A DNA stretch of 64,000 nucleotides from Bacteroidales bacterium UBA6680 (GCA_002454955.1 DKJY01000130.1:13769-77768); one strand, 5' to 3'. Numbered from the stretch's first letter, positions 45,685-64,000 are shown. Notes: a model not told the origin generated them from the sequence alone. Numbers and translations are program-made.

Positions 45685-45731
45685 CTGTACTGTTAATATA
45701 TAATAACAGTAGCATGGTATCTTTTAGCTGG

Positions 45732-46247: not shown

Positions 46248-46750
46248 ATGCTACAAAAATAGATATCTTACCCTAAATAACAACAACCAAAAGTTAGGAA
46301 TGAGAGTAGAATAGTAAAAAGCTGTGGATATACTCACCTGCAATATTTCTGCAATAAGTTGATTCATCCTAAGAACATACCTATAATAAAGCGCCGTAAA
46401 CTAAAGAGCTTATAAGGAATATTAATTACATTTGCTAGAACAATAAAATGGCGATACGCAATGGATAGAGTTGATCTGGTTAATTTATCTGGGAGTGTAT
46501 GTCATTTAAAAAGCCTATGGATACTGATAAACTAAATATTGACAATAAAGATATTTGGGATTCTAATGCAAAGGGTTAAGAGTATATGGGAGAATATGGC
46601 AACGACTGACATAAATGGCTAATAATTCAGTGCCCTTGCTTCAATTCAGGATCTGCAAATAGTCTGTTATAAATGAATTTATTGGGTCATCTTTTAACCC
46701 GAAGACAGACAATGGGATTTACTCAAGATTCTCTCCCATATTAATTATAA

Positions 46751-46882
46751 AGATGATTAATATGAAACGAAGCATAAGAAAGAGTTTCCACACACAAGAA
46801 ACAAGCATAAGAGTTGCTTACTAGTACACTAAAATGATTATTATGGAATTCAATATGACCATTGAAAAGAAAAAATAAATAT
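46751..46882 (+). promoter_or_regulatory. Leader element C1 upstream of the MATE gene, containing a conserved mini-ORF (46762..46824, MKRSIRKSFHTQETSIRVAY)
   Basis: TAATATGAAACGAAGCATAAGAAAGAGTTTCCACACACAAGAA matches 38 of 43 positions of a second copy at 56749-56791. A second shared box, TTCAATATGACCATTGAAA, lies just before the gene start. Confidence 0.4.
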
Positions 46883-48229
46883 ATGAAGGATAATAAAATT
46901 TTAACGGGAAAAATAAACTCAGTATTTTTCTCCTTTGCAATCCCTGTAGTACTCGGATTGGTTGCATCTTCTTCGGCAGGTATTATTGACGGAATGTTTA
47001 TTGGTAATTATATTGGAGAAACAGCACTTGCCGCAGTAACGCTATGTGTACCAATATTTCCTTTTTTAATGGGAATTGCTATTCTATTCTCAACTGGTGG
47101 CGAGGTATTTAGTGGCAAATTCATAGGCGAAGGTAATCATAAAAGAGCATCCGAAGTATTCACAAAAGTTATAATTGTTATTCTTACAATAAGCACTCTG
47201 CTAATGATTATTGGTCTGGTTTTTCTGGACTCATTAGTTAATCTGCTTGGAGCTGATAAGGAGGTGCATCAGATGGCTTCTGAATATTTACAGATAATTA
47301 TAATTAGTGCTCCGCTTATTGCTACGTTTTCCTTATCCTATTTTGTACGTGTTGATGGTAAACCAAACCTTAGTGCCGCATCGCTGTTAGCCACTGCCGT
47401 TCTTAATATAGTTTTAGATTACATATTTATTGTTGAGCTAAATTGGGGTATAAAAGGAGCTGCCTGGGGAACTATTCTGTCATACACAGCTATGCCCATT
47501 CTGCTACTACCTCACTTTATATTACGACAAGGAAACTTAAGATTTGTTAAGCCTACAAAATCACTCAAGATACTAGGAGAAGTAGCTTATAATGGATCTT
47601 CCGAATTTTTTAGCGAGATATCAGGAGGTATCTTACTGTTTGTTATAAATATTACCATGATGAAATATTATGGAAACAGAGGTGTTGCAGCTTATGCCGT
47701 AGTTGGTTATCTCCTATATTTCACCGCAATGGCATGCTATGGAGTTTCAGATGCAATAAAATCTATTGTTAGTATAAACTTTGGAGCAAAGCAGCGCAAA
47801 CGTATCTCTCAGTTTTTGCGAGTAGCAATAATTACTGTAGTCTCTTTTGGTTTTGTATTAGTAATCTTAACACAAATAAACTCAACCCTGTTTGTACAAC
47901 TATTTCTTAAAAATAATGCTGATACTACAGTTAGCACTTTAGCAAATGATTTCATATTATCAATCTCACCAGTACTATTAATTATAGGAACAAATATAAT
48001 ATTGTCAGCCTACTTTACGGCAATTCATATGCCAAAACCATCGTTAATAATTTCTCTATCAAGAACACTGATACTACCTCTAATTTTGATACCAATAATT
48101 ACAAGCCTTGTTGGCGGAGACGGAATTATTACGGCATTAATTATATCAGAAATAGCAACCCTTCTAATAGCAATATTGTTAGTATTAGGAAACAAAAATA
48201 AGGTAGCTTTTAAATCTCTTGATTCATAA
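46883..48229 (+). CDS. MATE-family multidrug/toxin efflux transporter
   Basis: It is a twelve-helix hydrophobic profile with N-terminal MatE-like sequence (FFSFAIPVVLGLVASSSAGIIDGMFIGNYIGETALAAV). The ATG at 46883 is preferred over the track TTG at 46862. Confidence 0.9.
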   Translation: MKDNKILTGKINSVFFSFAIPVVLGLVASSSAGIIDGMFIGNYIGETALAAVTLCVPIFPFLMGIAILFSTGGEVFSGKFIGEGNHKRASEVFTKVIIVILTISTLLMIIGLVFLDSLVNLLGADKEVHQMASEYLQIIIISAPLIATFSLSYFVRVDGKPNLSAASLLATAVLNIVLDYIFIVELNWGIKGAAWGTILSYTAMPILLLPHFILRQGNLRFVKPTKSLKILGEVAYNGSSEFFSEISGGILLFVINITMMKYYGNRGVAAYAVVGYLLYFTAMACYGVSDAIKSIVSINFGAKQRKRISQFLRVAIITVVSFGFVLVILTQINSTLFVQLFLKNNADTTVSTLANDFILSISPVLLIIGTNIILSAYFTAIHMPKPSLIISLSRTLILPLILIPIITSLVGGDGIITALIISEIATLLIAILLVLGNKNKVAFKSLDS

Positions 48230-48265
48230 AACCTATTTTACTGTCTTAAACAAGCTTAAGAATGA

Positions 48266-48375
48266 ATACCACTTATGGTCATACATAGTCACAAATTTGT
48301 ATATTTCCGCTTTTGTAAATAACTTTAACAAGTATGCTCTGCTAAACATACTGAGCACACACAATAAATATACGT
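48266..48375 (+). promoter_or_regulatory. Intergenic module B, copy 1 (decayed palindrome plus TTTG-N20-TAACTTTA promoter-like core)
   Basis: It is identical to the copy at 51055-51162 at 101 of 108 positions by my count, with a 53-nt uninterrupted identical run. TTTG lies at 48296-48299 and TAACTTTA at 48320-48327. Confidence 0.55.
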
Positions 48376-48567: not shown

Positions 48568-50007
48568 ATGAAAAAAATAATATTACTGATCATAAGCCTA
48601 GTGTTTATTAATGCTATTCAAGCACAAATTATCAATTCAGACTCCATTAAATTGGAACTCACAAAATATTTAAATCAACAAAAAGAGAAATATCAATTAC
48701 CAAGTCTGGTATTAGTATTGGTTCAGGGAGATAGTATAATTTATTCAAAAGCATTAGGGTATGCAGATGTTGAAAAAAAACTACCGGCAACTATTGATAG
48801 TAAATATCCTATAATGTCTATTACAAAGACGTTTACTGCTACTGTTTTAATGCAATTATATGAGGAAGGTAAATTATCATTGTATGACAAAGTGGAGACA
48901 TATATTCCGGAATATCAAGTTAAGACAGAAAATGGTAACAAGGCAAATACCAACTTGTTTCAGTTAAGTATACACAGTTCCGGTTTGGGTAGGAATTCAG
49001 GAGTTGATTTCCCTTATTTTAATTCATCAAATCGCTGGTATTTGAGTAACGGACAAGAAGAGTTAAAATGGTTTGTTACCAATAAAGAACTTTTAGCCTC
49101 GTTAAAAGAATTAAAACTGGAATATCCAGCGTATCATTTCTATCCTTTTAGCCGTCACTACTCCAATACAGGTTATGCACTATTAAGTATTGCTCTTGAA
49201 AGGATTAATAACAAGAGTATTACAAAATCTATAGAAGAAAACATCCTTCATCCTTTAGGAATGTTTAATACAGGATTTATAAATGAGAAAAACATCAGCA
49301 ATAAATTAGCAAAAGGTTACGCGCAATCCTGGAAAGATGACAAATTGCTAAAAGTACCAACCATTGATGTAGACAAAAATAATACAGTAATTGGAGCCGG
49401 TGGGTTATATTCAACAGGCCGTGATATGAGCAAGTATATCTCTTTTCAGTTGAGTAATAATAAACATAAAGAAGTCCTGTCCCAATTTTCAAAGAACAAA
49501 ATGTATTCTTTGAGAATAGGTTGGTCTTACTCTTATTACTATCCTTTTTCATTGATAACACACGATGGCGCTTTTATGGGATATAGAAGTCACATGGCAT
49601 TTAATCCCGACAAAGGAATAGGGTGGATTGTTTTTATCAATAAAAATGGTCAGCAAAGCGGTGAAAATGGAATGAGTTTCCGTAAATTAAATTCAAAAAT
49701 GGTTGAACTATTATATGATAGCAAAAACAATAATACCGAAGTAATCAATTATGAAAAGTATGTGGGTACATACAAAGCTATAGGAGGTAAAGAAGTAATT
49801 GAAATTAAGAAAGATGCTAAAGGTCTATATTCAACTCATTTAAACGACCTAATTGATAATACATACCTTGAACCAAATGGCTATCATTCGTTTATAGTAA
49901 AAGGAAATGGTGACCACAAAACCTATTATAAATTTATTATAGATAAGAACCAACGAGTAATCTCCTTAAAATTGGGGCCATTTGTTTGGAATAAAATTGA
50001 AAACTAA
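48568..50007 (+). CDS. Secreted beta-lactamase-fold serine hydrolase
   Basis: It has a signal peptide, an SxxK motif (MSITKTF) and a YxN motif (YSNTGY). Confidence 0.85.
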   Translation: MKKIILLIISLVFINAIQAQIINSDSIKLELTKYLNQQKEKYQLPSLVLVLVQGDSIIYSKALGYADVEKKLPATIDSKYPIMSITKTFTATVLMQLYEEGKLSLYDKVETYIPEYQVKTENGNKANTNLFQLSIHSSGLGRNSGVDFPYFNSSNRWYLSNGQEELKWFVTNKELLASLKELKLEYPAYHFYPFSRHYSNTGYALLSIALERINNKSITKSIEENILHPLGMFNTGFINEKNISNKLAKGYAQSWKDDKLLKVPTIDVDKNNTVIGAGGLYSTGRDMSKYISFQLSNNKHKEVLSQFSKNKMYSLRIGWSYSYYYPFSLITHDGAFMGYRSHMAFNPDKGIGWIVFINKNGQQSGENGMSFRKLNSKMVELLYDSKNNNTEVINYEKYVGTYKAIGGKEVIEIKKDAKGLYSTHLNDLIDNTYLEPNGYHSFIVKGNGDHKTYYKFIIDKNQRVISLKLGPFVWNKIEN

Positions 50008-50220
50008 AGCTAGTTGAGTAGGTAAAGGGGAATCTCACCCCTAAACCTCTCACAGAACCGTACGTGAACCTTTCAATTCATGCGGCACTTATCATGTTAT
50101 CAATTACCATATTAGATTAACTGACACATAATGTTAAATGATAAAACAGATTAGGATAACACTTATAGGTACACCGAAACTGATCCAAGTTTTCAGCTAA
50201 GATCATGACCATTAAAAATG
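50008..50220 (+). repeat. Intergenic module A, copy 1 (begins at the stop codon of the upstream gene)
   Basis: It shares blocks with the copies at 50819, 53194 and 57762: TAAAGCT-AGT...GTAGGTAAAGGGG..CTCACCCCTAAACCTCTCACAG, GAACCGTACGTGAACC, TCAATTCATGCGGC, TTATCATG, and TTTTCAGCTAAGAT. Confidence 0.8.
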
Positions 50221-50290
50221 GTTGCCACATATGGCAATACGTGGCAACAAAGTTGTATATTTCCGTTTTGTATATAACTTTAACAATCTA
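50221..50290 (+). promoter_or_regulatory. Intergenic module B, copy 2 (palindrome GTTGCCACATAT-GGCA-ATACGTGGCAAC plus TTG-N19-TAACTTTA)
   Basis: The palindrome spans 50221-50248. TTG lies at 50253-50255 and TAACTTTA at 50275-50282, 30 nt before the ATG at 50312. Confidence 0.55.
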
Positions 50291-50311
50291 CAGTTAGCCA
50301 CAACTAAACAA

Positions 50312-50818
50312 ATGGAACTTCGAAATCTAATAGGGAAAAAGATTAGTGATATAAGAATGGAAGTAAAAGATTTTCCATATGATGGAAGCATTCCATTGGA
50401 TGAATCTGTAAGCCATATTATTTTGGATTCAAATGAAATAATCGAAATTCCTTATCTAAATTCAAATTGCTTGTTATTAGAAGAAGCCCTATCGAAGAAT
50501 CAAAAAACAATCTTTGAAGAAAACGGAAATAAGTCTATACTTCATAAGTTATTTTTCCAGTCAGACTCTGATAATCTGATTACCAGAAATACCAATAATA
50601 TTAAAGACAAAGAAATTACAGCCATTTTTCAATATGATAGTCTATATTCAGATAAAGGTCGAGAATGGGATAAATGTTTGATCCAAGTTGAAAGTGGTTT
50701 TTTGATAAGTGAAAAAACAATCTCTCCTAAAGGGACAGGGCAAGCAGGAATTTGGATTTTTACCTCGCTTGAAGATTTAACAACAAAGATTGGAAGTGGT
50801 TTTAGAAAATTAATATAA
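50312..50818 (+). CDS. Hypothetical protein (168 aa)
   Basis: This is an ORF with an ATG at 50312 (MELRNLIGKK). The track ORF start at 50222 lies inside the repeat module and is unlikely to be real. No family was recognised. Confidence 0.5.
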   Translation: MELRNLIGKKISDIRMEVKDFPYDGSIPLDESVSHIILDSNEIIEIPYLNSNCLLLEEALSKNQKTIFEENGNKSILHKLFFQSDSDNLITRNTNNIKDKEITAIFQYDSLYSDKGREWDKCLIQVESGFLISEKTISPKGTGQAGIWIFTSLEDLTTKIGSGFRKLI

Positions 50819-51055
50819 CTAAAGAAGCAGCTAATACAGTAGACGGACATGAGCTGTAAAACCCACGTTGCACCTCTCACATGCTGATCATGCTGAAGTA
50901 GAACCATACGTGACCCAGCTTAATTCATATGGCTCTTATCATGCAGTCAATTGCTTAATTTAGGTTAACTGATAACCTAATGTACAATGGTAAAACAGAT
51001 TCGGGTAACTATTACAGAGGCATCACAGTTGATTACAGCTTTTCAGCTAAGATGA
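50819..51055 (+). repeat. Intergenic module A, copy 2
   Basis: A 58-nt stretch (TATCATGCAGTCAATTGCTTAATTTAGGTTAACTGATAACCTAATGTACAATGGTAAA) matches copy 3 at 57 of 58 positions. It contains the hairpin TTAGGTTA-actga-TAACCTAA (50960-50980). Confidence 0.85.
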
Positions 51056-51165
51056 TACCACGTATGGTCATACGTGGTCACAAATTTGTATATTTCCGCT
51101 TTTGTAAATAACTTTAACAAGTATGCTCTACTAAACATGCTGAGCACACACAATGTATATACAAA
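51056..51165 (+). promoter_or_regulatory. Intergenic module B, copy 3 (perfect palindrome ACCACGTATG-GT-CATACGTGGT plus TTTG-N20-TAACTTTA)
   Basis: The palindrome spans 51057-51078. TTTG lies at 51085-51088 and TAACTTTA at 51109-51116. A downstream small hairpin, TGCTC...GAGCA, is present. Confidence 0.6.
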
Positions 51166-51251: not shown

Positions 51252-52034
51252 ATGATTGATTATGTTGAACCGACAAAGATTTTAAGCAAATACATAAAAC
51301 ACTATTTAGTTGTTGAGTTAGACAATCCAATGGACTTTTTACCTAATGAAAGAGTTTATCCCTGCGGATATGCAACTATGGTTTTTCATTATGGTTCTCC
51401 GTCGATATTTCAGAAGAAGGATTCAAGCAAATATATTGAACCCAATTTGGTCATTTGTGGACAACAAACCAGTTATTATGACCTGTCATTATCAGGAAAG
51501 ACGGGCATGGTTCTTATTGTATTTAAACCGCATGGAATAAAATCTTTTTTCAATTTCCCAATTACTGAATTATTAAATGAGAATCTTTCGCTTCAGGACT
51601 TAATTAATAATGAGACTATTGAATTAGAAGACAAACTGTTTAACTCTCCGAATAATAGACAAAGAATTATTCATCTAGAAAACTTTCTTATTAAAAGATT
51701 AATTCATAATAATGAATTTGAACGAGTTGAACATGCCATAAAAATAATTGAGAATTCTAAAGGGCAAATTAAAGCTCAAGATATTGCACATGAGGTTTGT
51801 TTGGGGATAAAGCAATTTGAAAGGACTTTTTCAAAATATGTTGGCATAAATCCCAAAAAGTATGCAAGTATTGTCCGGTTTCAAAATGTCATACAAATGA
51901 AAAGAGAGCATAAAGACCTAAACATGTCTCAATTAGCTTTTGATAATGGTTATTACGATCAATCTCATTTTATTCATGATTTTAAAAGTTTAACAGGATT
52001 TACTCCAAAGTCTTTTTTTAACGCCAGAAAATAA
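51252..52034 (+). CDS. AraC-family transcriptional regulator
   Basis: The C-terminal HTH_18 segment is IAHEVCLGIKQFERTFSKYVGINPKKYASIVRF...LAFDNGYYDQSHFIHDFKSLTGFTPKSF. Confidence 0.85.
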   Translation: MIDYVEPTKILSKYIKHYLVVELDNPMDFLPNERVYPCGYATMVFHYGSPSIFQKKDSSKYIEPNLVICGQQTSYYDLSLSGKTGMVLIVFKPHGIKSFFNFPITELLNENLSLQDLINNETIELEDKLFNSPNNRQRIIHLENFLIKRLIHNNEFERVEHAIKIIENSKGQIKAQDIAHEVCLGIKQFERTFSKYVGINPKKYASIVRFQNVIQMKREHKDLNMSQLAFDNGYYDQSHFIHDFKSLTGFTPKSFFNARK

Positions 52035-52087
52035 AGACCATTTTTTACAATTTCTTCATTTATCTATAAACTATTTTTGAAATAAAA

Positions 52088-52822
52088 ATGGAAAGTATGA
52101 ATAAACTAAAATTAAAACATAAGGAAGTAGTAGATTTTTATACAAAAAACGCAGATGAAAATGTAGTTAAAAAACTATCTAGATATTTCAAAGAGGGATT
52201 AGATGCTTATGGTGTTGATAAAGATACGTTTTTAGCTCAAGGGAAAAAATGGCTCTCAGAATGGGAAAATGATATGACCATTGAAGATTATCTGGATTTT
52301 GGAGATATGCTCGTGTCAACCGGTAAATATGAAGAAGCACACTGTGCTACCGAGTTTATAATATCAAAAAAAGATGAATTCACACATGATACGTTTGATA
52401 GAATCGGGAAATGGTTAGAAAATGGAATTCAAAACTGGGCAAATACAGATGTATTATGCATGTCAGTATTATGTGAGTTTGTTTTTAATGATATTATACA
52501 ACCTAAAGACTTTATAAATTGGACTACTTCTGAGTCAAAATGGAAAAGAAGAGCTGTTCCGGTAACATTTGTTGAAACGTATAAAAAAGGATATAAACAA
52601 GAAACAATACTATCTGTAATAGAACATTTAATGGAAGATAAAGAAGAAGATGTTCAAAAAGGATTAGGTACGCTACTAAGAGAAATTTGGAAAAAACAAC
52701 CCGAAATAGCAGAAGAGTTTCTTTTAAAATGGAAAGATAAATGTGGACGGAAAATTATTCATTATGCGACTGAAAAAATGGATAAAGAGAATAAAGCAAA
52801 ATTCAAAAAGACTAAAAAATAG
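52088..52822 (+). CDS. DNA alkylation repair protein (AlkD-like HEAT-repeat family)
   Basis: The size and helical-repeat composition fit, and WKRRAVPVTF and the KGLGTLLREI-like segments are characteristic of PF08713 proteins. Confidence 0.7.
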   Translation: MESMNKLKLKHKEVVDFYTKNADENVVKKLSRYFKEGLDAYGVDKDTFLAQGKKWLSEWENDMTIEDYLDFGDMLVSTGKYEEAHCATEFIISKKDEFTHDTFDRIGKWLENGIQNWANTDVLCMSVLCEFVFNDIIQPKDFINWTTSESKWKRRAVPVTFVETYKKGYKQETILSVIEHLMEDKEEDVQKGLGTLLREIWKKQPEIAEEFLLKWKDKCGRKIIHYATEKMDKENKAKFKKTKK

Positions 52823-52827
52823 AGACA

Positions 52828-53193
52828 ATGGAACAAACAAATATTGATCTGGTCTCCTATTGTGGATTTTACTGTGGCACTTGCCCCAAATATACTAAAG
52901 GACATTGTGAAGGATGTAAAGGTAATAACCCAAAGTGTGCAGTTGGTTACAAATCATGTCAGGTAAAACCATGCTGCATTGAGAATGAATTTAATTCATG
53001 TGCAAACTGTAATAGATTTGAATCAGTCAAGGATTGTAAATTATATAATCCATTTATGATACGATTTGGACAATTTATTACACAAACAAATCGGAAATTA
53101 GGGATTGAGATGATAAAGGCAAAAGGGGAAACAGAGTTTGCAAAATACATGATTGATAAAGGTTGGGTAACGATTAAGAGTAGAAAACAATAA
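52828..53193 (+). CDS. DUF3795-family Cys-rich protein
   Basis: The N-terminal YCGFYCGTCPKY...CEGCKG...C pattern is typical of DUF3795. Confidence 0.75.
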   Translation: MEQTNIDLVSYCGFYCGTCPKYTKGHCEGCKGNNPKCAVGYKSCQVKPCCIENEFNSCANCNRFESVKDCKLYNPFMIRFGQFITQTNRKLGIEMIKAKGETEFAKYMIDKGWVTIKSRKQ

Positions 53194-53400
53194 AGCTCAG
53201 TACACGTAGTAAAAGGGAACCTCACCCCTAAACCTCTCACAGCTCTACTGGGCATTGCCGAAGTAGAGCCGTATGTGCCCCCCTCAATTCATACGGCTAT
53301 TATCATGCAGTCAATTGCTTAATTTAGGTTAACTGATAACCTAATGTATAATGGTAAATCGCATTGGTTATAGCTTTTGTTAATTTGCTCCTATCCTATT
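53194..53400 (+). repeat. Intergenic module A, copy 3 (begins at the stop codon; followed by the 105-bp tandem array instead of module B)
   Basis: It has the same block order as copies 1 and 2. Its hairpins are GCTCTACT-N12-AGTAGAGC, AGCCGTATG-N14-CATACGGCT and TTAGGTTA-actga-TAACCTAA (53326-53346). Confidence 0.85.
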
Positions 53401-54300
53401 TTCTATTCAAACCATGTATCCGGAATACAAAACCACTAACCTGAAACATCAAACCTATAAACCTGAATTGTCAACCATCAATATTTTTGTGCAGACCATA
53501 CATCCAGAAACAAAAACCAAACATCCAGAATGCAAAACTGCTAATCTGAAATCATAAACCTATAAACCTGAGTTGGCAACCATCAATATTTCTGTGCAGA
53601 TCATCCATCCAGAAATAAAAACCAAACGTCCAGAATGCAAAACTGCTAATCTGAAATAACAAACCTATAAACCTGAGTTGGCAACCATCAATATTTCTGT
53701 GCAGATCATCCATCCAGAAATAAAAACCAAACGTCCAGAATGCAAAACTGCTAATCTGAAATCATAAACCTATAAACCAGAACTGTCAACCATCAATATT
53801 TCTGTGCAGATCATCCATCCAAAAATAAAAACCAAACGTCCAGAATGCAAAACTGCTAATCTGAAATAACAAACCTATAAACCTGAGTTGGCAACCATCA
53901 ATATTTCTGTGCAGATCATCCATCCAGAAATAAAAACCAAACATCCAGAATGCAAAACTGCTAATCTGAAATAATAAACCTATAAACCAGAACTGTAAAC
54001 CATCAATATTTCTGTACAGACCATACATCCAGAAATAAAAACCAAACATCCAGAATGCAAAACTGCTAATCTGAAATGACAAACCTATAAAACTGAACCG
54101 TAAACCATCAATATTTTTGTACAGACCATACGTCCAGAAATAAAAACAAAAAACAAAACATCCAGAATGCAAAATAACTAATCTGAAATAGCAAACCTAT
54201 AAGCCAGAACTGTAAACCATCAATATTTTTGTACAGACCTCAAATCCAAAAATAGAAATCATGAATACAGAATATAGAATCATTAACATGAAACATTAAT
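53401..54300. repeat. Tandem repeat array with a 105-bp unit: eight phased units plus degenerate flanking partial units
   Basis: The CCATCAATATT anchor occurs at 53475, 53580, 53685, 53790, 53895, 54000 and 54105 (exact 105-bp spacing) and at 54217 (112 bp). The alternating A/B unit variants give a 210-bp higher-order period. Each unit has an 8-bp inverted repeat, TATTTCTG-N15-CAGAAATA. Confidence 0.95.
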
Positions 54301-55248: not shown

Positions 55249-55251
55249 TAA

Positions 55252-55325
55252 TTCGGTTGCTTACTACTCTATTTGATAACGTAATTTGTATATTTCGCTT
55301 GGTAAGCAACACTTAACAAGTGAAT
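55252..55325 (+). promoter_or_regulatory. Intergenic module B', copy 1 (GTTGCTTAC...GTAAGCAAC inverted repeat flanking the AATTTGTATATTTCGC core)
   Basis: It shares GCTTACT..T.T..AT.T..TAACGTAATTTGTATATT-C-GCTT-GTAA with the copy at 58181-58245. The 9-bp inverted repeat lies at 55256-55264 and 55302-55310. Confidence 0.5.
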
Positions 55326-55442
55326 ATTGCTATGCATAAAAGATAAACATAATAAATATAGATATTAAAAGATCATAGCGATTTGGATGGGAAAAAATAT
55401 GATGTCAAACACCCCATGTTTAAGTGATTGGCAACAATTTGA

Positions 55443-56279: not shown

Positions 56280-56740
56280 AATGAACAGTCTTTGACCTAA
56301 ATTGCACTTAAGGCTAATACAACCTACATTACCTTTGTATCAATATAAAATACAAGGTTATGAACTATTCCGAAATTTACATATTTATTTCAGAGTCGAT
56401 CCTGACAACCATAGGAGACTTAATAATTTTTAAGCCAATAAACATTAAGCCTAATGAAGGGATAGAGATAGCAGGAAATGCAAGTGTATTATACTATGTC
56501 TGTTCATTTGGAGTATTACTGTTTGCTATAATATTACTTTCACTTTTGGAAAGCCTTAAGGACTCATCAAGTAAATCTGTTGCGATTTCTTCTTTTCCTA
56601 TCATTAGCATTTGGCAGATTACCAACCGTTTTACTTAGCGTAATTACATCAGGCGGAATGGTAAAACTATAGACTAGAGATCATGTTTAGCCTATTCGGA
56701 TTTATCCTTCTTTAATTAAATAGCAAGAAAATCTTTTAAA

Positions 56741-56840
56741 ATTAGAATAATATGAAACGAAGCATGAGAAAGAGTTTTCGCACACGAGGATGACTAAAAA
56801 TGCGGCGTTCCATATGACCTATTAAAACAAATTTAGACAT
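56741..56840 (+). promoter_or_regulatory. Leader element C2 upstream of the SDR gene, containing the conserved mini-ORF (56752..56793, MKRSMRKSFRTRG)
   Basis: It is the second copy of the element at 46751-46882. The second box, TTCCATATGACCTATTAAA, lies about 20 nt before the ATG at 56841. Confidence 0.4.
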
Positions 56841-57761
56841 ATGAATAAATCAATATTGATAACAGGAGCCAATGCTGGAATTGGTAAAGAGACTGCAAGG
56901 CAATTAGCATTAATAGAAGAAACAGAATTAATCTATTTAGCATGTAGAAATCTTGAAAAAGCAGAAATAGCAAAGAAAGAACTAATTGAAATTACAGGAA
57001 GAGATATATTTAAAATTATTGTTCTGGATATCTCGAAACCTGATAATGTTAAGCAAGCTGTTTTACAATTATATGAACCAATAGATGCCGTAATAATGAA
57101 TGCTGGCGGAACAGGAGGAAAAACACCTGAAAAACTTACCAAAGATGGGGTTACAGAATTAACTGCGAGTAATCTTTTAGGACACGTTGTGCTTCTTGAT
57201 GAGTTAATATTGCAAAACAAATTAAATAATGTGGCTTTATTTGCTAGTTCTGAAGCCTCCAGAGGTATTGAAAGAGTGGGAATAAAAAGACCTGATTTAA
57301 AGGATAATTCAGTAGATGAATTTGTTTCAATTTTTGATGGAAGCAAGTTTAAAGGAAACTTTGATGCATATCAGATTTATGGCTGGATTAAATATGGAGG
57401 AACTCTTTGGATGAGTAATATGGCAAGAAAACATCCGAACATCAAATTTATAAGCATGAGTCCAGGGGGAACAAGGGGTACCAACGGTATGAATGATTTA
57501 CCTTTTTTAAAGAGAATATTTTTAAAACATATTGGAATGAAATTAATTATGCCATTAATGGGAATGTCGCATTCAGTAGAGAAAGGTGCAAAACGTTTTG
57601 TTGAAGGTATTAATAACCCAAAATTCAAAAGTGGTATATTTTATGCAAGTAAAGAAAAGGTATTAACAGGACAAGTTATAGATCAAAATAGTATTTGGAA
57701 GGATTTAGGTAATCATAAATTTCAAAATAATGCAGATATAGCAATTCATAAATTTATTTGA
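56841..57761 (+). CDS. Short-chain dehydrogenase/reductase (SDR) family oxidoreductase
   Basis: It has ITGANAGIGKETA (TGxxxGxG), NAGG, and a YxxxK candidate (YGWIK). Confidence 0.85.
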   Translation: MNKSILITGANAGIGKETARQLALIEETELIYLACRNLEKAEIAKKELIEITGRDIFKIIVLDISKPDNVKQAVLQLYEPIDAVIMNAGGTGGKTPEKLTKDGVTELTASNLLGHVVLLDELILQNKLNNVALFASSEASRGIERVGIKRPDLKDNSVDEFVSIFDGSKFKGNFDAYQIYGWIKYGGTLWMSNMARKHPNIKFISMSPGGTRGTNGMNDLPFLKRIFLKHIGMKLIMPLMGMSHSVEKGAKRFVEGINNPKFKSGIFYASKEKVLTGQVIDQNSIWKDLGNHKFQNNADIAIHKFI

Positions 57762-57930
57762 TTAGAAACATTAACCAATTAAGTAAGTAAAGGGAGGTCT
57801 CACCACCAGATCTCCCTTAGCTCTGCAAAACATACAGAGATAGAACCGTACGTGAACCTCCCTATCCGATGGTATATCTTATTAGATATAACTCAATGCC
57901 AATTTGCTCCTACCTTATGCTTTATTCATA
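57762..57930 (+). repeat. Intergenic module A, copy 4 (partial and diverged)
   Basis: It carries AGTAAGTAAAGGGAGGTCTCACCACCAGATCTCCC (a 9-bp stem with one G-T pair), GAACCGTACGTGAACC, and AATTTGCTCCTACCTTATGCTTTATTCA. The last block matches 53385-53410. Confidence 0.7.
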
Positions 57931-58180
57931 TTAATTTTTGGTAATGATATTTATCAATGGTATTACCTACAGTAAATGACAAACCTTCTACTCTCAATGT
58001 TCTATATCAGTTACGCTAAGTGTAACTAAAGTCAAATGCTATTCAAACTTTAACTATATAATATATAATCAACTATAGCTTGTATCTGGCAATAACAGAA
58101 CCAGCTTATAGTTTATATTAGTTAAGGTTAAACCCCACCCACAAAGGACTTCTCTTTCCGAACAATTCAGATGCTTACTG

Positions 58181-58245
58181 TTGTTATATCTAACGTAATT
58201 TGTATATTCCGCTTTGTAAATAACTTTAATCCTGAGCACTATGAC
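58181..58245 (+). promoter_or_regulatory. Intergenic module B', copy 2 (TTTG-N18-TAACTTTA)
   Basis: TTTG lies at 58209-58212 and TAACTTTA at 58231-58238. It is similar to 55252-55325 upstream of the core and to the B copies downstream of it. Confidence 0.5.
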
Positions 58246-58371
58246 AGATCAGGTAATTTTGGTATGGCTTACAGATATAGTTAATTAAGAGATTAGTACA
58301 CCAATGATCTATAAGTTAATTGTGGATAATGCAAAATAATCTACTATAAAATTCAACATATAATTAAGAAG

Positions 58372-59787
58372 ATGATTTCTGAACAAGATAAACTTATTGA
58401 AATAATAAGGGGTGAGATTGAATATTTAGAAAATGTTGATTCCTTGCCGATTGGAGTAAATAAGAGCAAAGAAGAATTAATTAGGTTGATTGATAAAAAA
58501 TTACCTGAAAACGGTGAGGATTTTACCACTGCGTTAGAGAAATTGTCATCTGGTGCAAGATCCGGATTAATTGGAAACAGAAATCCCAGATATTTTGGAT
58601 ATGTGCTTGCAGGAACAACCCCTACAGCTATGGCTGCAGATTGGTTAACTTCAGTATGGAATCAGAATGCACAAGTCTTTAATTCCTCTCCAGCAGCTTC
58701 GATATTTGAAGAAATTGTTGCCTCATGGTTGCTTGAATTATTATCGTTACCTAACTATTCATCTTTGGGTTTTGTAACAGGCGGGCAAATGGCAAATTTT
58801 ACAGCCATTAATATTGCCCGAAATACCGTATTAGAAAAAAACGGCTGGGACTTTGATAAAAATGGGATGCAAGGAGCCCCATTTATATCTATTTATTGTG
58901 CTGATGTGTGTCATGGAACAATTCTTTCAGCAATCCGAATGAATGGATTTGGAGAAAAAAACATAGTACCAATATCAACCGATCCGGAAGGAAGAATGAT
59001 TATTTCGGACTTAGAAGATAAGTTAAGCAATCATAAAGGACCTAAAATAATTTGTAGCCAAGCAGGAAATGTAAATACTGGAAGTTTTGATTTTTTTGAA
59101 GCTATTTCAGAATTAGCAAATAAGCACAAAGCCTGGCATCATATTGACGGTGCATTTGGACTTTGGGCGAGAACATCGTCTAATTTTTCAGAATTAACGA
59201 AAGGGATTGATAAAGCTGACTCTTGGACAGTTGATGCTCATAAGTGGTTAAGCATACCATTTGATTCAGGGATGGTTATAACCAGACATAAAGACTCTCT
59301 TGCAAACCTGAAGAAATCACGTTGCGCATATTCCGGAATACCAGATGATTCTATGCGTGATGGTTCGCAATGGGTTCCAGAGAATTCAAGGAGAGCTAGA
59401 GGCTTTGTACTTTATGCAACAATTAGAAACTTTGGTAGAAAAGGGATTAGCAAAATTATTGAGAATAACTGTTATTTAGCTCGTCAATTAGCTGAGTTAT
59501 TAAATTCTTTTAGAGATACAAAAATTGTAAATGAAATACACCTTAATCAAGTATTATGTAGAATAGAGCCAAAGAATGTGAAGGAATTAGATGAATTTCA
59601 CAGAAAAACAGCTCAAAGAATTCAGAAAGAGGGTATTTGTTGGCTTGGCACATCTGTTTGGAACGGAGAAACTGTTTTAAGAATGTCATTAACAAATGTC
59701 TATACATCATCAGAAGATATAACAATTACTGTTAATTCAATAAGAAAAGCCATTGATTATGTACTCGAAAATGATAACAATCAGTAG
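58372..59787 (+). CDS. Pyridoxal-phosphate-dependent decarboxylase (group II, fold type I)
   Basis: It has GGQMANF, HIDGAFG and the PLP-lysine context SWTVDAHKWLSIPFDSG. Confidence 0.85.
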   Translation: MISEQDKLIEIIRGEIEYLENVDSLPIGVNKSKEELIRLIDKKLPENGEDFTTALEKLSSGARSGLIGNRNPRYFGYVLAGTTPTAMAADWLTSVWNQNAQVFNSSPAASIFEEIVASWLLELLSLPNYSSLGFVTGGQMANFTAINIARNTVLEKNGWDFDKNGMQGAPFISIYCADVCHGTILSAIRMNGFGEKNIVPISTDPEGRMIISDLEDKLSNHKGPKIICSQAGNVNTGSFDFFEAISELANKHKAWHHIDGAFGLWARTSSNFSELTKGIDKADSWTVDAHKWLSIPFDSGMVITRHKDSLANLKKSRCAYSGIPDDSMRDGSQWVPENSRRARGFVLYATIRNFGRKGISKIIENNCYLARQLAELLNSFRDTKIVNEIHLNQVLCRIEPKNVKELDEFHRKTAQRIQKEGICWLGTSVWNGETVLRMSLTNVYTSSEDITITVNSIRKAIDYVLENDNNQ

Positions 59788-59913
59788 AATGCATATTGCC
59801 TGAATATAATAGACAAAATGGGAATCTTACACATAAATCTCTCATCAGATTAACCAATAAAAATCTGTATATAATTCGCATCACTTACAATTGAGTTAAA
59901 CAAATACTACTGA

Positions 59914-60210
59914 AATTCAAAAGAGATAAGAGAATATCCTACTGCTGGATATTTTGCTGATAAATTGAATGTATCTACTAACTACCTGAGTGATATTGTT
60001 AAAGTCAATATAAGGAAAACAGCAAAGGAGCTTATAAATGAGTGCATCTTAAAGCAAGCCAAAAGATATTTAGACACTCAGCAGCATTCAATTTCATAAA
60101 TTGCATATATGCTTTATGCTTGGCTTTGAATATCCAAATTATTTTGCTTGTTTCTTTAAAAGAGAACTTGGATATTCACTATCTCACTATAAAAAAAGTT
60201 TTCCGGTAAA
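59914..60210 (+). pseudogene. Remnant of an AraC-family regulator (C-terminal HTH only, with an in-frame stop and a frameshift)
   Basis: The frame opening at 59914 reads NSKEIREYPTAGYFADKLNVSTNYLSDIVK...ELINECILKQAKRYLDTQQHSIS, then a stop. The expected continuation (LGFEYPNYFACFFKRELGYSLSHYKK) is in another frame within track ORF 60101..60403. The N-terminal effector domain is absent. Confidence 0.7.
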
Positions 60211-60342
60211 TAGTATCTTTATTTCAGGAAATAGTATACACTCCTCTTTTATACGCCACATATCTTTGCATCATAATAGTGTAAATTATTTTGGTGTGCA
60301 TAATCATCATCCCAAAATGATGAAAATAAAAGAGTTTAAGAG

Positions 60343-60978
60343 ATGGAGAATATACTTATTATTAATGCTCATCAGAAATATCCAAGTGCCGAAGGCAGAT
60401 TGAATGCAAGTTTGGTTGAACAAGCAGAAATGTTTTTTACTAATAGAGGCGACAGTGTTAAAATCACGAAAATGATTGATGATATTAACATTGATAAAGA
60501 AGTAGAAAAACATGTTTGGGCTGATATAATTATCATTCAAACCCCTGCATATTGGATGGGAGTGCCATGGTCTTTTAAAAAATATATGGACGATGTCTAC
60601 TCAATGGGAACAATGGGTAAATTATGTGATAGTGATGGCAGATCAAGCCAAAATCCTAAAGAAAATTATGGCACAGGAGGTCAATTAAATAACACCAGAT
60701 ACATGCTATCTGTTACATTTAATGCACCAAAAGAGGCCTTTAATAATCCAGATGAATATTTATTTCAAGGAAAATCTGTTGACGATTTATTTGTTTCTAT
60801 GCATTTGTGTATGCGATTTTTTGCTGCTAAAGCTTTACCAACATTCGCTTGCCACGATGTTATTAAGAATCCTGTAATAAAAGAAGATTTTGAACGATTT
60901 GAGGAACATCTGAATAAAACATTTAATGATACTCCCAGCTCCCACATTAGTCAAAAGAACCTAATCAGTAAAATTTAA
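60343..60978 (+). CDS. mdaB: NAD(P)H:quinone oxidoreductase MdaB (flavodoxin-like fold)
   Basis: It is collinear with my recollection of E. coli MdaB: NILIINAHQKYPSAEGRLN, WADIIIIQTPAYWMGVPWSFKKYMDDV, YGTGG, YMLSVTFNAP and LPTFACHDVIK. Confidence 0.85.
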   Translation: MENILIINAHQKYPSAEGRLNASLVEQAEMFFTNRGDSVKITKMIDDINIDKEVEKHVWADIIIIQTPAYWMGVPWSFKKYMDDVYSMGTMGKLCDSDGRSSQNPKENYGTGGQLNNTRYMLSVTFNAPKEAFNNPDEYLFQGKSVDDLFVSMHLCMRFFAAKALPTFACHDVIKNPVIKEDFERFEEHLNKTFNDTPSSHISQKNLISKI

Positions 60979-60990
60979 ATAAATAAGATT

Positions 60991-62034
60991 ATGAAGATAA
61001 CAAAAGTACTTTGTACGATTATTCTTGGCACAATATCTTTGGGATTATTTGCACAGAATGCAGAAAAGCAATCAGACGCGAGCTATAAAATTAGCTTTAC
61101 AGAAGGGCTTAATAAAGTTAATTTCTTAAGTGAAGGAACACGTATGGCTGGCAATTTATTTGTACCTGCTAATTATAGAGAAGATGGAAAACTCAAAGCC
61201 ATTGTAGTAGTAACTCCGGCAGGTGGAGTAAAAGAGCAAACAGCAGGTATTTATGCAGAAAAGCTATCTAAACAAGGTTTTATTGCTCTTGCTTTTGATC
61301 ATAGAACTTTTGGTGAAAGTGGAGGATTGCCTCGTACTATGGAAAATGCTCCGATGAAAGTAGAAGATATCAAGAATGCAATATCATTTATTCGTACTGT
61401 AGCAGGTGTAGATAGAGACAATATTGGACTGTTAGGTATTTGCTCCGGTTCTGGTTATAGTATTCAAACTACAATTTTTGACGACAGAATAAAAGCCTTA
61501 GCAACGGTAAGTGGTTATAACGATTTTGTTGGGTATGGTTTAAGCGGAGCAACACAGTATGGCGATGTATTAACAGGCGATGGAATTGAGCAATTCCAAC
61601 AGCAAATGAAAATGGCTAGTGATGCGCGTCAAAAATATTACGAAACAGGAGAAGTTATTTATGTAGATGCAATACCTGTTAAAGGCTCAGGAAGAGGTGT
61701 TTTCTGGGATAGAGCTGCTGATTATTACAGAAATCCAGAAAGAGGAGCAGTTGATAATTATAGTCCTTTGCGTGCTGCAATTTCATTGGATACTCGTTAC
61801 TTCTTCAATGCCCTTGAGCACATGAATTTAATGAGAGACACACCTTTCTTGGCAGTTGCGGGATCTGTAGCATTATCAATAGGACAAAGCGAAGCAGCTG
61901 TAAAAAATGCTATTGGTGACAAAGAATTATTTAAGGTAAAGGATGCAACTCACTTTGATCTTTACGATCAAGATTGGGCTGTGGATCAAGCAATAGAGAA
62001 ATTAAACGATTTCTACGGTAAGAAACTAAAATAA
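60991..62034 (+). CDS. Secreted alpha/beta hydrolase, dienelactone-hydrolase-like
   Basis: It has a signal peptide and an alpha/beta-fold core (AIVVVTPAGG, FDHRTFGESGG). The nucleophile elbow GICSGSG fits either a G-x-C-x-G or a Ser variant. Confidence 0.75.
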   Translation: MKITKVLCTIILGTISLGLFAQNAEKQSDASYKISFTEGLNKVNFLSEGTRMAGNLFVPANYREDGKLKAIVVVTPAGGVKEQTAGIYAEKLSKQGFIALAFDHRTFGESGGLPRTMENAPMKVEDIKNAISFIRTVAGVDRDNIGLLGICSGSGYSIQTTIFDDRIKALATVSGYNDFVGYGLSGATQYGDVLTGDGIEQFQQQMKMASDARQKYYETGEVIYVDAIPVKGSGRGVFWDRAADYYRNPERGAVDNYSPLRAAISLDTRYFFNALEHMNLMRDTPFLAVAGSVALSIGQSEAAVKNAIGDKELFKVKDATHFDLYDQDWAVDQAIEKLNDFYGKKLK

Positions 62035-62065
62035 GTAATCTTACTGACACAAAAGTATAGTACAT

Positions 62066-62101
62066 AAAAATGGATTTCGAATGTTACGGAATCCATTTTT
62101 T
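62066..62101 (+). terminator. Rho-independent terminator
   Basis: AAAAATGGATT..CG aatgtta CGGAATCCATTTTT has one mismatch in the stem and is followed by a T run. Confidence 0.6.
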
Positions 62102-62417
62102 AAAGTAGGATAAAACAAACTAGTTGATTAAATTTTTAATACATAATTTAAGGATAATAAATAACAGCAAACTACTCATAGCAGAGTAGGTAAAGAGTAG
62201 TCTCATCATTAATGATATTTATTAATGGCATTATCTACCATATTACCACATGCGTTATTCCGATCTTTATGTACCCAACAATAAACAGAATTTGTTTAGT
62301 TTGATAAATGAGTTAAATAGGATAAATTTAAAAAGAAAAAATTAGCTGCAACATTAAATAAATAGTATTAAAACAACGTTTATTATTACCGTTGACACTA
62401 ATTTAAAAGAAATCTAA

Positions 62418-64000
62418 ATGGGCAAATTCCTGAGTATATTATTACTACTTGTGACTATCTCCTCTTTCGGGCAAACAGAAATTACCACTAAAGTTGATTC
62501 GCTGCTTAAATCAAAAATAGAATCTGAATTCGCTCCAGGAATAACTATTGGCATAGTAAAAGGTAATAAACTAATATATCACAATAGTTCAGGATGCATG
62601 AATCTTGAGTATAATGTCCCGTATAATGACTCAACAGTATTTGGGTTAGCCTCTGTTACCAAACAGTTTACAACTGCATGTATCGGAGTGCTTGAGGCAC
62701 AAGGAAGGCTATCTGTAAATGATGATATAAGAACATATATCCCGGAACTGGCATATCACAACGATACCATCAGGATCAAACATCTGCTAAATCATACAAG
62801 TGGAATTAGAAATCATAATGTTTTATTAGATCTAAAAGGATTTGATTATGAGCATAGAGGCTATACAAATAAAATGATTCAGGAACTTATGTTCCGCCAG
62901 AGAGGGGTAAATAACTTACCAGGTGCCAAAGTGTTATACTCTAACACAAACTATGTTCTGCTGGCATTGGTTGTTGAAAGGGTATCTGGTAATAAGCTCC
63001 ATGAGTTTGCCAGGAATGAGCTATTCACCCCATTAAATATGAAACAAACATTTTACATGAGTGATATCAGAGCTGTAATCAAAAACAGAGCTTATCCGTA
63101 TTACAAAGAGAAAGACAGATACAAACAACCCAAAACACTTACTCTATGCGTTGGTGCAGGCGAAATGGGGAGTACTGTTTATGACTTATCGCTTTGGTCA
63201 CAGGTATTTTTAAATCCTCATCATAAGTTCTCTTACCTAAAAGATTTTATCACGCATCAAGATACACTTATCAGCGGTGAGCTAATGAGTCATGCAAGAG
63301 GTATGTTTGTTTCGCCATATAAGGGTTATACTACCTATAACCACAGCGGACGAGGCTTAGGTATGCGTTCACAGTTTATATGTGTTCCTGAATTAAACAT
63401 TGGAGTTATTGTATATACCAACTCAGAACATATAAATGCCGTAAGTACTTCATACCAAATCTTAGACCTGTTTATAGACAAAACAGAAATGGTAAAGAAG
63501 AGAGCTACGCTAAGTAAAAAATACAAAAATAAGAAGTTAAAGAGATATGTTGGAACTTATCAGGAGCTAAATAGCGATTTAAGGATGACTATTTTTATCG
63601 AAAGAGATACCTTAAAAGCCATTAGTAGTTTTGGTAATGATCCTGTTCCGCTTATTTACAAAGGAGATAATAGGTTTTGTCGTCAGAACAATTCATTTGT
63701 AACATATTCCTTTATATTACAAACATATTCAGAAACAGACTTGCAGGTTGATTTTGGTGGAGCAATATTCTATTTTGAACGTATAGAGCTTTCAAAAAAA
63801 CCAGATGTTAACCTACAGCAATATACAGGAATCTATTATTCTAAAGAGCTTGATGTTACATACAACATAACCTTGTCTGACAATAAACTGATACTAAATT
63901 ATCCTAATAATGAGAATATAGTTCTGCGCGAAGGGGAAGAGAATGTATTTGGTGCAAATAGAAGAACAAAATACTCCTTTTTAAAAAATAAAAAGGGAGA
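62418..64000 (+). CDS. Secreted beta-lactamase-fold serine hydrolase, 3'-partial (runs off the window; absent from the ORF track because no stop is reached)
   Basis: My manual translation from the ATG at 62418 is open to position 64000. It reads MGKFLSILLLLVTISSFGQ (signal), ASVTKQF (SxxK), YSNTNY (YxN) and HSGRG (a KTG-like motif). Confidence 0.85.
   Translation, partial: MGKFLSILLLLVTISSFGQTEITTKVDSLLKSKIESEFAPGITIGIVKGNKLIYHNSSGCMNLEYNVPYNDSTVFGLASVTKQFTTACIGVLEAQGRLSVNDDIRTYIPELAYHNDTIRIKHLLNHTSGIRNHNVLLDLKGFDYEHRGYTNKMIQELMFRQRGVNNLPGAKVLYSNTNYVLLALVVERVSGNKLHEFARNELFTPLNMKQTFYMSDIRAVIKNRAYPYYKEKDRYKQPKTLTLCVGAGEMGSTVYDLSLWSQVFLNPHHKFSYLKDFITHQDTLISGELMSHARGMFVSPYKGYTTYNHSGRGLGMRSQFICVPELNIGVIVYTNSEHINAVSTSYQILDLFIDKTEMVKKRATLSKKYKNKKLKRYVGTYQELNSDLRMTIFIERDTLKAISSFGNDPVPLIYKGDNRFCRQNNSFVTYSFILQTYSETDLQVDFGGAIFYFERIELSKKPDVNLQQYTGIYYSKELDVTYNITLSDNKLILNYPNNENIVLREGEENVFGANRRTKYSFLKNKKG

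Follow-up and report, generated by a model that had tools for sequence, protein, structure and literature searches.

Organization of the accessory-gene array

Analysis of a 64,000-nucleotide (nt) stretch of DNA from Bacteroidales bacterium UBA6680 (GCA_002454955.1, DKJY01000130.1:13769-77768), hereafter the window, showed that its right-hand part is a hypervariable array of co-directional accessory genes at a fixed chromosomal site of this coral-associated bacterium. The spacers between these genes are built from recurring non-coding modules, A and B, which are almost certainly relics of group II introns and which lie antisense to the genes. Coordinates are those of the whole window unless a comparison locus (L001 to L016) is named. 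The array starts just past a divergent GNAT gene, and from 46862 onward all open reading frames (ORFs) with family support lie on the + strand (ORF list and Pfam), as a first-pass annotation of the window had claimed for every gene after 46.2 kb. In L001, a JGI contig that is 99.7% identical to the window and extends it, the + orientation carries on through six further genes, about 6 kb past the window end, to window-equivalent ~70.3 kb, where a convergent type IX secretion system (T9SS) cargo gene closes the run; the L001 genes past the window end encode GNATs, VanY, a polysaccharide deacetylase and DUF5700. The arrangement of the window is reproduced by the JGI, ENA and Logan assemblies. The idea of a tRNA as integration site found nothing to build on, there being zero tRNAs in the window. 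Two inverted paralogous Por_Secre_tail genes (T9SS cargo, Ig/cadherin-like; ~58% nt identity) bracket the array, at window 41388-43826 (+) and at L001 19554-21044 (-), the latter from window-equivalent ~70.5 kb onward.

Pfam assignments agreed with the grab-bag of functions that had been proposed for the array: MatE, two beta-lactamase-fold/DUF3471 proteins, two AraC regulators, DNA_alkylation, DUF3795, SDR, a pyridoxal phosphate (PLP)-dependent decarboxylase, Flavodoxin_2 and an alpha/beta hydrolase. The first unit is the MatE efflux gene (PF01554; 46883-48229), followed, all on the + strand, by a beta-lactamase-fold/DUF3471 gene (48568-50007); a hypothetical gene with a short leader and without a Pfam family (50299-50818; ORF start at 50231 or 50312); an AraC(DUF6597)-DNA_alkylation-DUF3795 group (51252-53193); a second hypothetical gene, from the ORF list and also without a Pfam family (54529-55248), for which the terminator scan gave a terminator-like hairpin at 55215-55238; an AraC(ExsA_N)-DUF4345-SDR group (55443-57761), in which DUF4345 is frameshifted (56282-56756, by blastn to DUF4345 genes of relatives); the PLP-dependent decarboxylase gene (58372-59787); a quinone-reductase-like Flavodoxin_2 gene with the alpha/beta hydrolase gene (60343-62034); and the second beta-lactamase-fold/DUF3471 gene, which runs off the window (62418-64000). 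Between the decarboxylase and Flavodoxin_2 genes lies the decayed AraC gene already reported by the first-pass annotation, a frameshifted C-terminal remnant at 59914-60211 (+) that is readable in two frames (tblastn with the AraC protein of L007, E=3e-11).

The AraC(ExsA_N)-DUF4345-SDR trio stays together in Tenacibaculum, Pontimicrobium and other relatives (L003-L006), with all remaining neighbours different and with an SDR that is 84-87% identical in amino acids (aa) to that of L003-L005, suggesting that these three genes may move laterally as a unit; the Tenacibaculum and Pontimicrobium loci that carry the trio are without spacer modules. A 105-bp tandem array was found at 53418-54258 (7.9 copies, 90% identity; Tandem Repeats Finder), downstream of the A copy at 53194 as previously described. 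Its copy number varies by strain, L001 having three units fewer than the window, and a 128-aa minus-strand ORF spanning it is probably a repeat artefact. Repeats related to this tandem array sit behind a gene in L007 (1-331).

Recurring modules in the spacers

Pairwise comparison of the spacers supported the earlier proposal that they are made of a small set of modules. The clearest matches were 48266-48373 with 51055-51162 (93.5% identity, E=1e-42), 50872-50994 with 53232-53358 (85%, E=6e-35) and 50054-50286 with 50900-51120 (71%, E=1e-28). A 25-nt degenerate pattern for B had 4 matches, compared with 0 in 100 shuffles; the B core is present too at 58197-58229 and 55250-55360, and in every case B lies 20-190 nt before the next start codon. 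Module A follows the stop codons of 50005-50007 and 53191-53193 after 5-6 nt, in the position at gene ends that had been assigned to it. A and B adjoin at 50013-50296 and 50834-51151 (copies c50 and c51) and are separated by other sequence within 57774-58253 (c58), again in line with the initial description. At 48250-48375, where a tail of A plus B had been called, the B part held, since 48252-48362 (c48) contains B and a palindrome, and the A tail did not, there being none. The A-like scraps reported further downstream were recovered at 59816-59849 and 62160-62212, in the expected places and at weak significance (E about 0.004-0.009), and the shared 30-mer proved to be a 29-mer common to 57942-57970 and 62210-62238.

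The modules are derived from group II introns

The identity of module A was revealed by a match of 50013-50090, on the minus strand, to the Rfam family RF00029 (Intron_gpII), at 50.4 bits against a gathering score of 40 (E=6e-7). A weaker Rfam match to domain V lies at 50901-50935, and alignment revealed domain V-VI homology in c51, c58 and a further copy at 53200-53409 (c53). Since the RF00029 match is on the minus strand, module A is the 3' end of an intron (domains V-VI) that is antisense to the genes. Module B, read on the minus strand, starts with GUGUGUGC, and intron 5' ends read GTGTGTGC.., with GTGTG present in c48, in c51 and in another 8 copies related to them; at the 3' ends the sequence is ..CTACTC(G/A)A(C/T). 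The elements have the termini of group II introns, namely GUGYG at the 5' end and a branch-site A lying 7-8 nt upstream of the 3' end.

Related copies linked module B to the other end of the intron. Scanning GTDB genomes for the exact pattern of the B core yielded four places (L007-L010) in two metagenome-assembled genomes (MAGs), the Bacteroidales McBI.38 and the Marinifilaceae McD1.32; a metagenome collection, which evidently lacks the source contig, gave 0 matches to the B pattern. L007 and L008 have a compact B-A element as in the window, and L009 and L010 have longer versions in which domain I goes on normally (GAAAGGUGAAAGUCC...); the L010 element leads into a maturase ORF remnant with Pfam GIIM (PF08388), and the L009 element retains a C-terminal maturase remnant (...GTAYSWSRT). 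A distant full-length relative (L011), which is antisense and has its 3' end at a stop codon, codes for an intron-encoded protein (IEP) whose RVT_1 and GIIM are split by a frameshift into 203 and 224 aa, the size of endonuclease-less IIC proteins. The best solved relatives of the IEP fragments of related copies are IIC reverse transcriptases (RTs; 7uim, 6ar1), and the RT half of L011 scores 165-173 bits with the IIC RTs 5hhl, 7uim, 5hhj and 6ar1, compared with 100 for the IIA protein LtrA and 63 for a IIB RT. The continuation of domain I, the maturase remnants and the IIC RT relatives together place module B at the 5' end of a class-C-type intron, as the first ~95 nt of its domain I. We regard the identification of the modules as group II intron relics as virtually certain; their placement in the class C (IIC) lineage is judged from the RT relatives of the IEPs of related copies, the window copies themselves being without an IEP, and should be read as probable.

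The elements are derivatives of group II introns rather than intact introns. The Rfam models of the domain I-IV scaffold (D1-D4) had no match in 46-64 kb at E<=10, compared with 105 bits for the full-length L011, and an intron-encoded RT or maturase is absent from the window, remnants occurring only in the related copies L009, L010 and L011. This lack of a D1-D4 match, together with a compact form that has a palindrome in place of most of domain I, marks the window copies as relics or derivatives, and none looks catalytically intact, given the missing D1-D4, a UGC triad in domain V of c50 and a broken domain V in c58. The first-pass annotation overlooked that the modules are antisense relics of introns, probably of group IIC; the conserved junction of which it spoke is consequently a retroelement insertion site and not a demonstrated recombinase site.

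An attempt to place the middle part of the compact form on a full-length intron failed, as L011, the one full-length relative found, has diverged too far and aligns over no more than its first ~25 nt and the IEP. The L011 region also holds a DDE transposase and a tyrosine recombinase (1131-2303, 8066-9208) ~2.3 kb from the full-length intron relative. At L009 (McBI.38) two co-directional ORFs of 285 and 387 aa (5117-5974 and 6800-7963, both -) flank a long-type relic that is antisense to them; by eye only, these ORFs look defence-like (TIR-like and ATPase-like).

Anatomy of the copies

The commonest type of copy is a compact, ORF-less form of 290-350 nt with intron-precise ends (5' GUGUG, 3' ..CUACUCGAY). 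Its parts follow in the order B, palindrome with 10-12-bp arms, ATCTTAGCTGAA, a middle of ~110 nt, domain V and domain VI, and its internal junctions are alike in the window, L007 (two copies), L008, L013 and L015; the intron-precise ends stand beside unrelated flanks in at least 4 genomes. The remaining copies are longer ORF-less relics or fragments. In all, 9 copies retain the palindrome, (G)TTGCCACGTATGGCCATACGTGGCAA(C), among which G-U changes and a single compensatory pair (G-C to A-T) were seen. Over 8 copies of the compact element, covariation analysis gave 4-5 compensatory pairs, too few to claim a selected RNA fold.

The window has 9 relics between 46.3 and 62.3 kb, all of them minus-strand. 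The first, 46325-46573, sits at the array's left edge and is a relic of the interior of a long-type intron (blastn to L007 1836-2080, 70%, E=1e-29); the adjoining L007 2037-2192 aligns with positions 475-631 of the L009 intron, and the same edge in relatives (L013 12553-12587, L015 12543-12581) matches L009 intron positions 452-490. Next, c48 consists of the 5' module only, with the 5' end GUGUGUGC..., the B core and the palindrome (nhmmer E=1.5e-15), and its 5' junction, marked by a slash, reads ...TATTTATT/GTGTGTGCTCAG. The compact copy c50 is without its first ~20-35 nt and scores 235 bits by nhmmer; its 3' junction, ...CCTACTCAAC/TAGCTTTAG, lies 5 nt from a stop codon, and the "AGC" triad of its domain V reads UGC in the Rfam alignment. 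The only complete compact copy is c51 (318 nt; nhmmer 228 bits), with both junctions defined, the palindrome at 51057-51080 followed by the middle part, the weakly matched domain V at 50901-50935 and domain VI; its RNA fold is -85.8 kcal/mol (z=-1.9).

The other window copies are incomplete or of the long type. From its 3' end, c53 comprises domains VI and V, the middle and a stretch like the c58 interior (85% to c51; nhmmer E=1e-21; 53351-53409 matches 57869-57928), and the tandem array stands in place of its 5' part. Copy c55 (55247-55362) is a decayed long-type 5' module that abuts the stop codon of the upstream gene (blastn: 71% to L009 intron 14-102, 77% to c58). Copy c58 is a long-type ORF-less relic of ~480 nt, 71.5% identical over 165 nt to L009 intron 9-173 (nhmmer E=2e-4), which retains a piece of domain I that includes the GAAAG..AAGUCC motif, as well as domain VI and a decayed domain V. 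A weak domain VI scrap at 59816-59849, 28 nt past a stop codon, is 82% identical over 34 nt to 50024-50056 (E=0.009), and a last scrap at 62169-62238 combines a domain-VI-like piece with the 29-mer that it has in common with the c58 interior (repeat families D4 and D11; blastn E=0.004 and 5e-4).

Insertion sites

All copies are antisense to the flanking genes. In the four window copies that could be measured, the 3' end follows the upstream stop codon at a distance of 5 nt (gene ending at 50007), 15 nt (50818), 6 nt (53193) or 12 nt (57761). Copies in relatives, including L007a, L011 and L013, obey the same rule, the intron 3' end lying ~10-30 nt from the stop codon. A compilation of 10 5' ends and 13 3' ends showed conserved termini beside unrelated flanks, which indicates discrete insertions and not segmental duplications. 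The 5' flanks finish in ..TT and the 3' flanks start with T(A/G)(G/C)CTG or TGG. An apparently empty site in L007 (3345-3500) reads ..TATATATTGT/TATGCGCTGG.., 12 nt from a stop codon. These ..TT/T junctions and the one empty site, TTGT/T, resemble the TTGT/T consensus of introns that insert into the attC sites of integrons (IIC-attC introns; PMC7923331), with no recognisable attC site here.

Some of the insertion sites have a stem-loop 5' of the element. A hairpin family of the form TATGAARCR, variable stem, loop, YRYTTTATGA, with compensatory changes in the stem, was found at L007 5001-5049, L010 7357-7409 and L015 14401-14447 (-), always 6 nt 5' of the intron 5' end at these three ends; a remnant of its 3' arm occurs at a fourth 5' end, L015 e2, and no free-standing copy was seen. 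The hairpin could be either a preferred IIC target or a sequence that travels with the element. Only 2 loci have its loop motif, GTTGCWCCTGCGAC, and the window gave no convincing match. When reconstructed, the sites of L011 and L009 form imperfect hairpins of ~130 nt (z -3.0 and -1.3).

Distribution and variation among relatives

The elements were compared across L013, a "Bacteroidales bacterium" MAG, and L015 and L016, from two JGI samples, all comparison loci being metagenome-derived. Searches with blastn and nhmmer found the A-B element neither in window 1-46000 nor in the 8 kb past 64000, a region that is part array and part flank; the 12.5-kb backbones of L013 and L015 have no copy either. 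Within the arrays, 5-6 relics lie in 9 kb of L013 and 2 in L015. The AraC-TPR gene at 43909-45612 has 84-85% relatives in L013, L015 and L016, and the backbone from 33909 to 46510 is 81% identical in nt to L013 and L015, unbroken through the divergent GNAT gene and ending inside the 46325-46573 relic at 46510. Past this point every genome has its own co-directional array with the same antisense compact elements. The L013 array comprises an SMI1_KNR4 gene, of a family that we take to be typical of immunity proteins, several hypothetical genes, DUF1016/YhcG, RhuM and others; that of L015 and L016, seen again in the second sample, has SMI1_KNR4 and then different genes.

One unit is shared between two of these arrays. 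Window 50159-50888 matches L013 15797-16528 at 94%, with different neighbours in the two arrays; the hypothetical gene itself (50299-50818 and L013 15937-16457) is ~98% identical in nt, the preceding B module 89% and the following domain VI 87%. The similarity ends sharply on the right, at the 5' end of domain VI, and on the other side near ..TTCAGCTAAG. A look-up of the exact protein of this hypothetical gene found JGI, ENA (coral) and Logan records, all of the same strain. L013 and L015, in turn, are 97% identical as far as the first element and then diverge, the first element of L015 being a hybrid of L013 elements 1 and 2, with the two intervening genes missing. The MatE gene is 91.6% identical in nt and 95.8% in aa to that of L008, a Marinifilaceae MAG with wholly different neighbours; this homology covers only 46866-48262 (L008 1243-2637), from 17 nt before the ATG to 33 nt past the stop codon, just beyond a small hairpin, and stops where the B module starts.

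The breakpoints lie in the relics. A gene order that differs between relatives past 46510, a shared unit that is 98% identical against 81% for the backbone, and an indel with a hybrid module bear out the view that repeated insertion, deletion and recombination shaped this locus, and the strain comparison that the first-pass annotation had called for showed arrays that differ and a B-gene-A unit in another array. In the loci compared, we did not find what that annotation held to speak against it, an ordinary genome-wide family of miniature inverted-repeat transposable elements (MITEs) or repetitive extragenic palindromes (REPs), with identical gene order among relatives and no junctions.

A second non-coding repeat family of ~110-130 nt, the D element (ATATGAAACGAAGCATGAG..CACACGAG..ATGCGAGTTCCATATGACAAAT..AAACA(G/T)ATG), was also observed. 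It has imperfect inverted ends and no Rfam match, and its end usually coincides with the start codon of the gene that follows (MatE, SDR, VanY). Copies lie at 46745-46885 (+), 56735-56843 (+) and 1578-1690 (-) in the window, and elsewhere at L001 13766-13829 and 14230-14353, L007 7823-7945 (-), L008 7735-7855, L009 4133-4250 (-) and L015 5645-5770 (-). One copy sits between two convergent genes in L015 and L016 and is missing at that spot in the window (39650-39688) and in L013, which makes the D element a MITE-like insertion polymorphism.

A proposed role of the intron relics as portable homology

We consider it reasonably probable that the locus is a gene array in which the intron relics act as portable homology for the exchange of units. 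The introns would have come by the usual IIC route, reverse splicing beside a stem-loop at gene ends, with the compact form presumably mobilised in trans by a full-length relative. The dispersed copies would then provide portable homology between genes, and recombination between them, within one genome or with incoming DNA of a similar array, would delete, insert or swap units. The outcome would be cassette-array behaviour without integron machinery, an antisense-strand analogue of exon shuffling via introns, and would come near the Leon-Roy idea of how cassettes arise.

Several observations weigh against this account. In McBI.38, copies occur on three contigs, so that the element family is not confined to a single locus, each of these places being a run of co-directional accessory or defence-like genes. 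The array between 62 and 70 kb has no A or B copies by blastn, which means that the elements are not needed between every unit. Copies that are only 65-93% identical are a poor RecA-type substrate, and breakpoints in modules could therefore partly reflect that modules occupy most of the intergenic space. The apparent transposition, with intron-precise ends, of a compact form without most of domain I is not accounted for by standard ribozyme chemistry, and the upstream hairpin expected of IIC targets is clear in some copies only, the c51 site having no hairpin fold (z +0.9). Finally, there are only one clear shared unit and one strain-level indel, all in metagenome assemblies, and assemblers make chimeras at repeats.

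A bolder reading, to which we grant a small chance, takes the ~300-nt compact elements to be active, trans-mobilised mini group IIC introns that would seed themselves antisense behind genes and would assemble and shuffle cassettes, through recombination between copies or through an unlinked recombinase acting on the palindrome. If true, marine Bacteroidales would have in this locus an analogue of the integron that is built from a retroelement and is free of an integrase, and the locus would be a living case of the Leon-Roy proposal discussed below. An alternative to such mini-intron mobility is that full-length insertions were gene-converted by a compact master copy.

It is also conceivable, but in our judgement rather unlikely, that the array is a passive graveyard, a low-constraint island in which IIC introns and their decayed copies pile up while gene turnover proceeds unrelated to them. 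The copies in the window do all look decayed (the c50 triad, the c58 domain V, the fragments) and old, given their 65-93% identity; the distal third of the array is variable in content yet without copies; and IIC introns are known in intergenic regions after terminators (PMC4424553). Mere accumulation fits poorly, however, with the hybrid element that separates L015 from L013, a direct footprint of copy-copy recombination, and with the position of both ends of the shared unit, and of the backbone/array boundary itself, inside relics. Moreover, copies are more alike within than between genomes (the middle of L007a and L007b is nearly identical; c48 and c51 are 93.5% identical), which suggests that conversion or amplification of copies may be ongoing.

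We find improbable a dedicated site-specific cassette system, in which the compact element or its palindrome would be an attC analogue for a recombinase encoded elsewhere, and B-gene-A circles would excise, re-insert and re-form the A/B junction. No recombinase, transposase or RT was found in L001 8 kb beyond the window, in the L013 and L015 loci or in the scanned window ORFs (Pfam, no Phage_integrase; two upstream ORFs, with counterparts in relatives annotated as arginase and PvlArgDC, were left out of the scan). Our own crude scan for canonical attC sites (RYYYAAC...GTTRRRY, 50-150 nt, hairpin) gave no excess, with 5 candidates in 72 kb compared with 1-7 in shuffles and none behind a stop codon; the absence of integrase, transposase and canonical attC that had been noted for the window holds within these scans. 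In addition, one end of the shared unit falls after the palindrome and the other at the domain V/VI boundary, whereas a single crossover point would have put both at the same element position, and identity falls off gradually through the flanking modules, as with homologous exchange. On the other side stand the ...A/B-gene-A/B-gene... order at one chromosomal site in three genomes, the palindrome kept in 9 copies with a compensatory pair, two independent breakpoints (the left edge of the hypothetical unit and the L015 hybrid junction) just beside the palindrome or B near ..TTCAGCTAAGAT, and the recombinase-linked, integron-like rAID-1 (recombinase-associated acquired interbacterial defence) arrays of Bacteroidales (10.1101/471110).

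That the mosaicism consists of metagenomic mis-joins at repeats, the real arrays being stable, is very improbable: the comparison loci are all metagenome contigs or MAGs, the L014 assembly breaks exactly at the array start and copies have exact 30-40-mers in common, but the window arrangement is the same in the JGI, ENA and Logan assemblies, the L015 array is repeated in L016, and the L013 unit, whose gene differs from that of the window by 2% and whose flanking modules differ by 11-13%, is not a read-level mix-in of the window strain. Hardly more credible are A and B as the shared terminator and promoter/operator of one regulon, kept by selection and not by mobility, for although B always lies 20-190 nt before a start codon, the palindrome could bind a dimeric regulator and IIC-attC introns carry outward promoters driving downstream cassettes (PMC3001079), the modules end as introns do, match a covariance model of domains V-VI and have relatives that carry a maturase, B has no Bacteroidetes-type promoter (-33 TTTG / -7 TAnnTTTG) on the + strand as read by eye, and neither a sigma-70-type scan (85 promoter-like sites, 89 expected) nor a terminator scan showed an excess; exaptation of B as an outward promoter would be secondary.

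Relation to known systems

Spacers of this kind would appear as empty intergenic DNA in annotation pipelines, and the array would escape integron finders. The origin of integron cassettes and of their recombination sites is a long-standing open question; among the few concrete proposals is the insertion of group IIC introns behind genes, followed by recombination between the copies that strings the genes into arrays. In PMC7923331 and PMC3001079, IIC-attC introns are placed on the bottom strand, antisense in cassette arrays, at the TTGT/T site of attC, and recombination between IIC intron copies is put forward as a way of linking genes with recombination sites; the Leon-Roy proposal, in which gene cassettes are made by group IIC introns, is cited in the former. 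The elements studied here share with IIC-attC introns a class C lineage, as suggested by their RT relatives, the strand opposite the cassette genes, a 3' exon that begins a few nt from the upstream stop codon, the ..TT|T-type insertion context, a stem-loop 5' of some sites and the frequency of truncated copies. Unlike them, they are accompanied by neither attC nor an integron integrase, occur in a Bacteroidales host, recur behind many array genes rather than sporadically and are mostly a ~300-nt ORF-less derivative.

The array as a whole is comparable to integrons and to clusters of attC sites lacking integron-integrases (CALINs), in that unrelated co-directional accessory genes occupy a fixed site with content that varies among close relatives, a structured repeat comes after each unit, and units are shared between arrays in different order. 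It differs in having no IntI and no R''/R' boxes, several multi-gene units with their own AraC regulators, and repeats that are 290-480-nt retroelement relics instead of attC sites of 57-141 nt. The rAID-1 arrays belong to the same order and are long, co-directional and rich in repetitive intergenic sequence "reminiscent of integrons" (10.1101/471110), and the arrays of the relatives studied here start with an SMI1_KNR4 gene. In contrast, the defining feature of rAID-1, an XerD-like recombinase gene (>44% identity to BF9343_RS08045) at the 5' end, is absent here, where the 5' edge is a divergent GNAT gene, and the window array holds efflux, hydrolase and redox genes, not immunity genes. By analogy, the locus may be likened to an integron or CALIN invaded by IIC-attC introns, and to rAID-1, but it lacks the IntI, attC and XerD-like recombinase that define these systems.

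At the level of the element, MITEs and REPs are similarly short, non-autonomous, intergenic, multi-copy and found at rearrangement breakpoints, whereas the present elements end in intron splice sites and are strictly opposed to the flanking genes; inspection of the compiled termini and flanks, which was not a systematic search, showed no terminal inverted repeats or target-site duplications. Further parallels are the ORF-less or degenerate group II introns of bacteria and the group III introns of Euglena, in which the IEP is lost and the ribozyme shrunken while domains V and VI and the 5' end are kept. As with bacterial ORF-less introns, described as rare (PMC4424553), IEP-bearing copies in related genomes could act in trans (PMC4424553); those introns, however, are described as full ribozymes. 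The elements of this locus instead point to a miniaturised, apparently still-propagating bacterial derivative of group II introns. To our knowledge, a ~300-nt form without most of domain I, multiplied with precise ends, has no description in bacteria. In sum, the locus and its counterparts display in nature an architecture of the Leon-Roy type, with an antisense, probably IIC-derived element behind many unrelated co-oriented genes, and provide a natural system in which the building of cassette arrays becomes testable.

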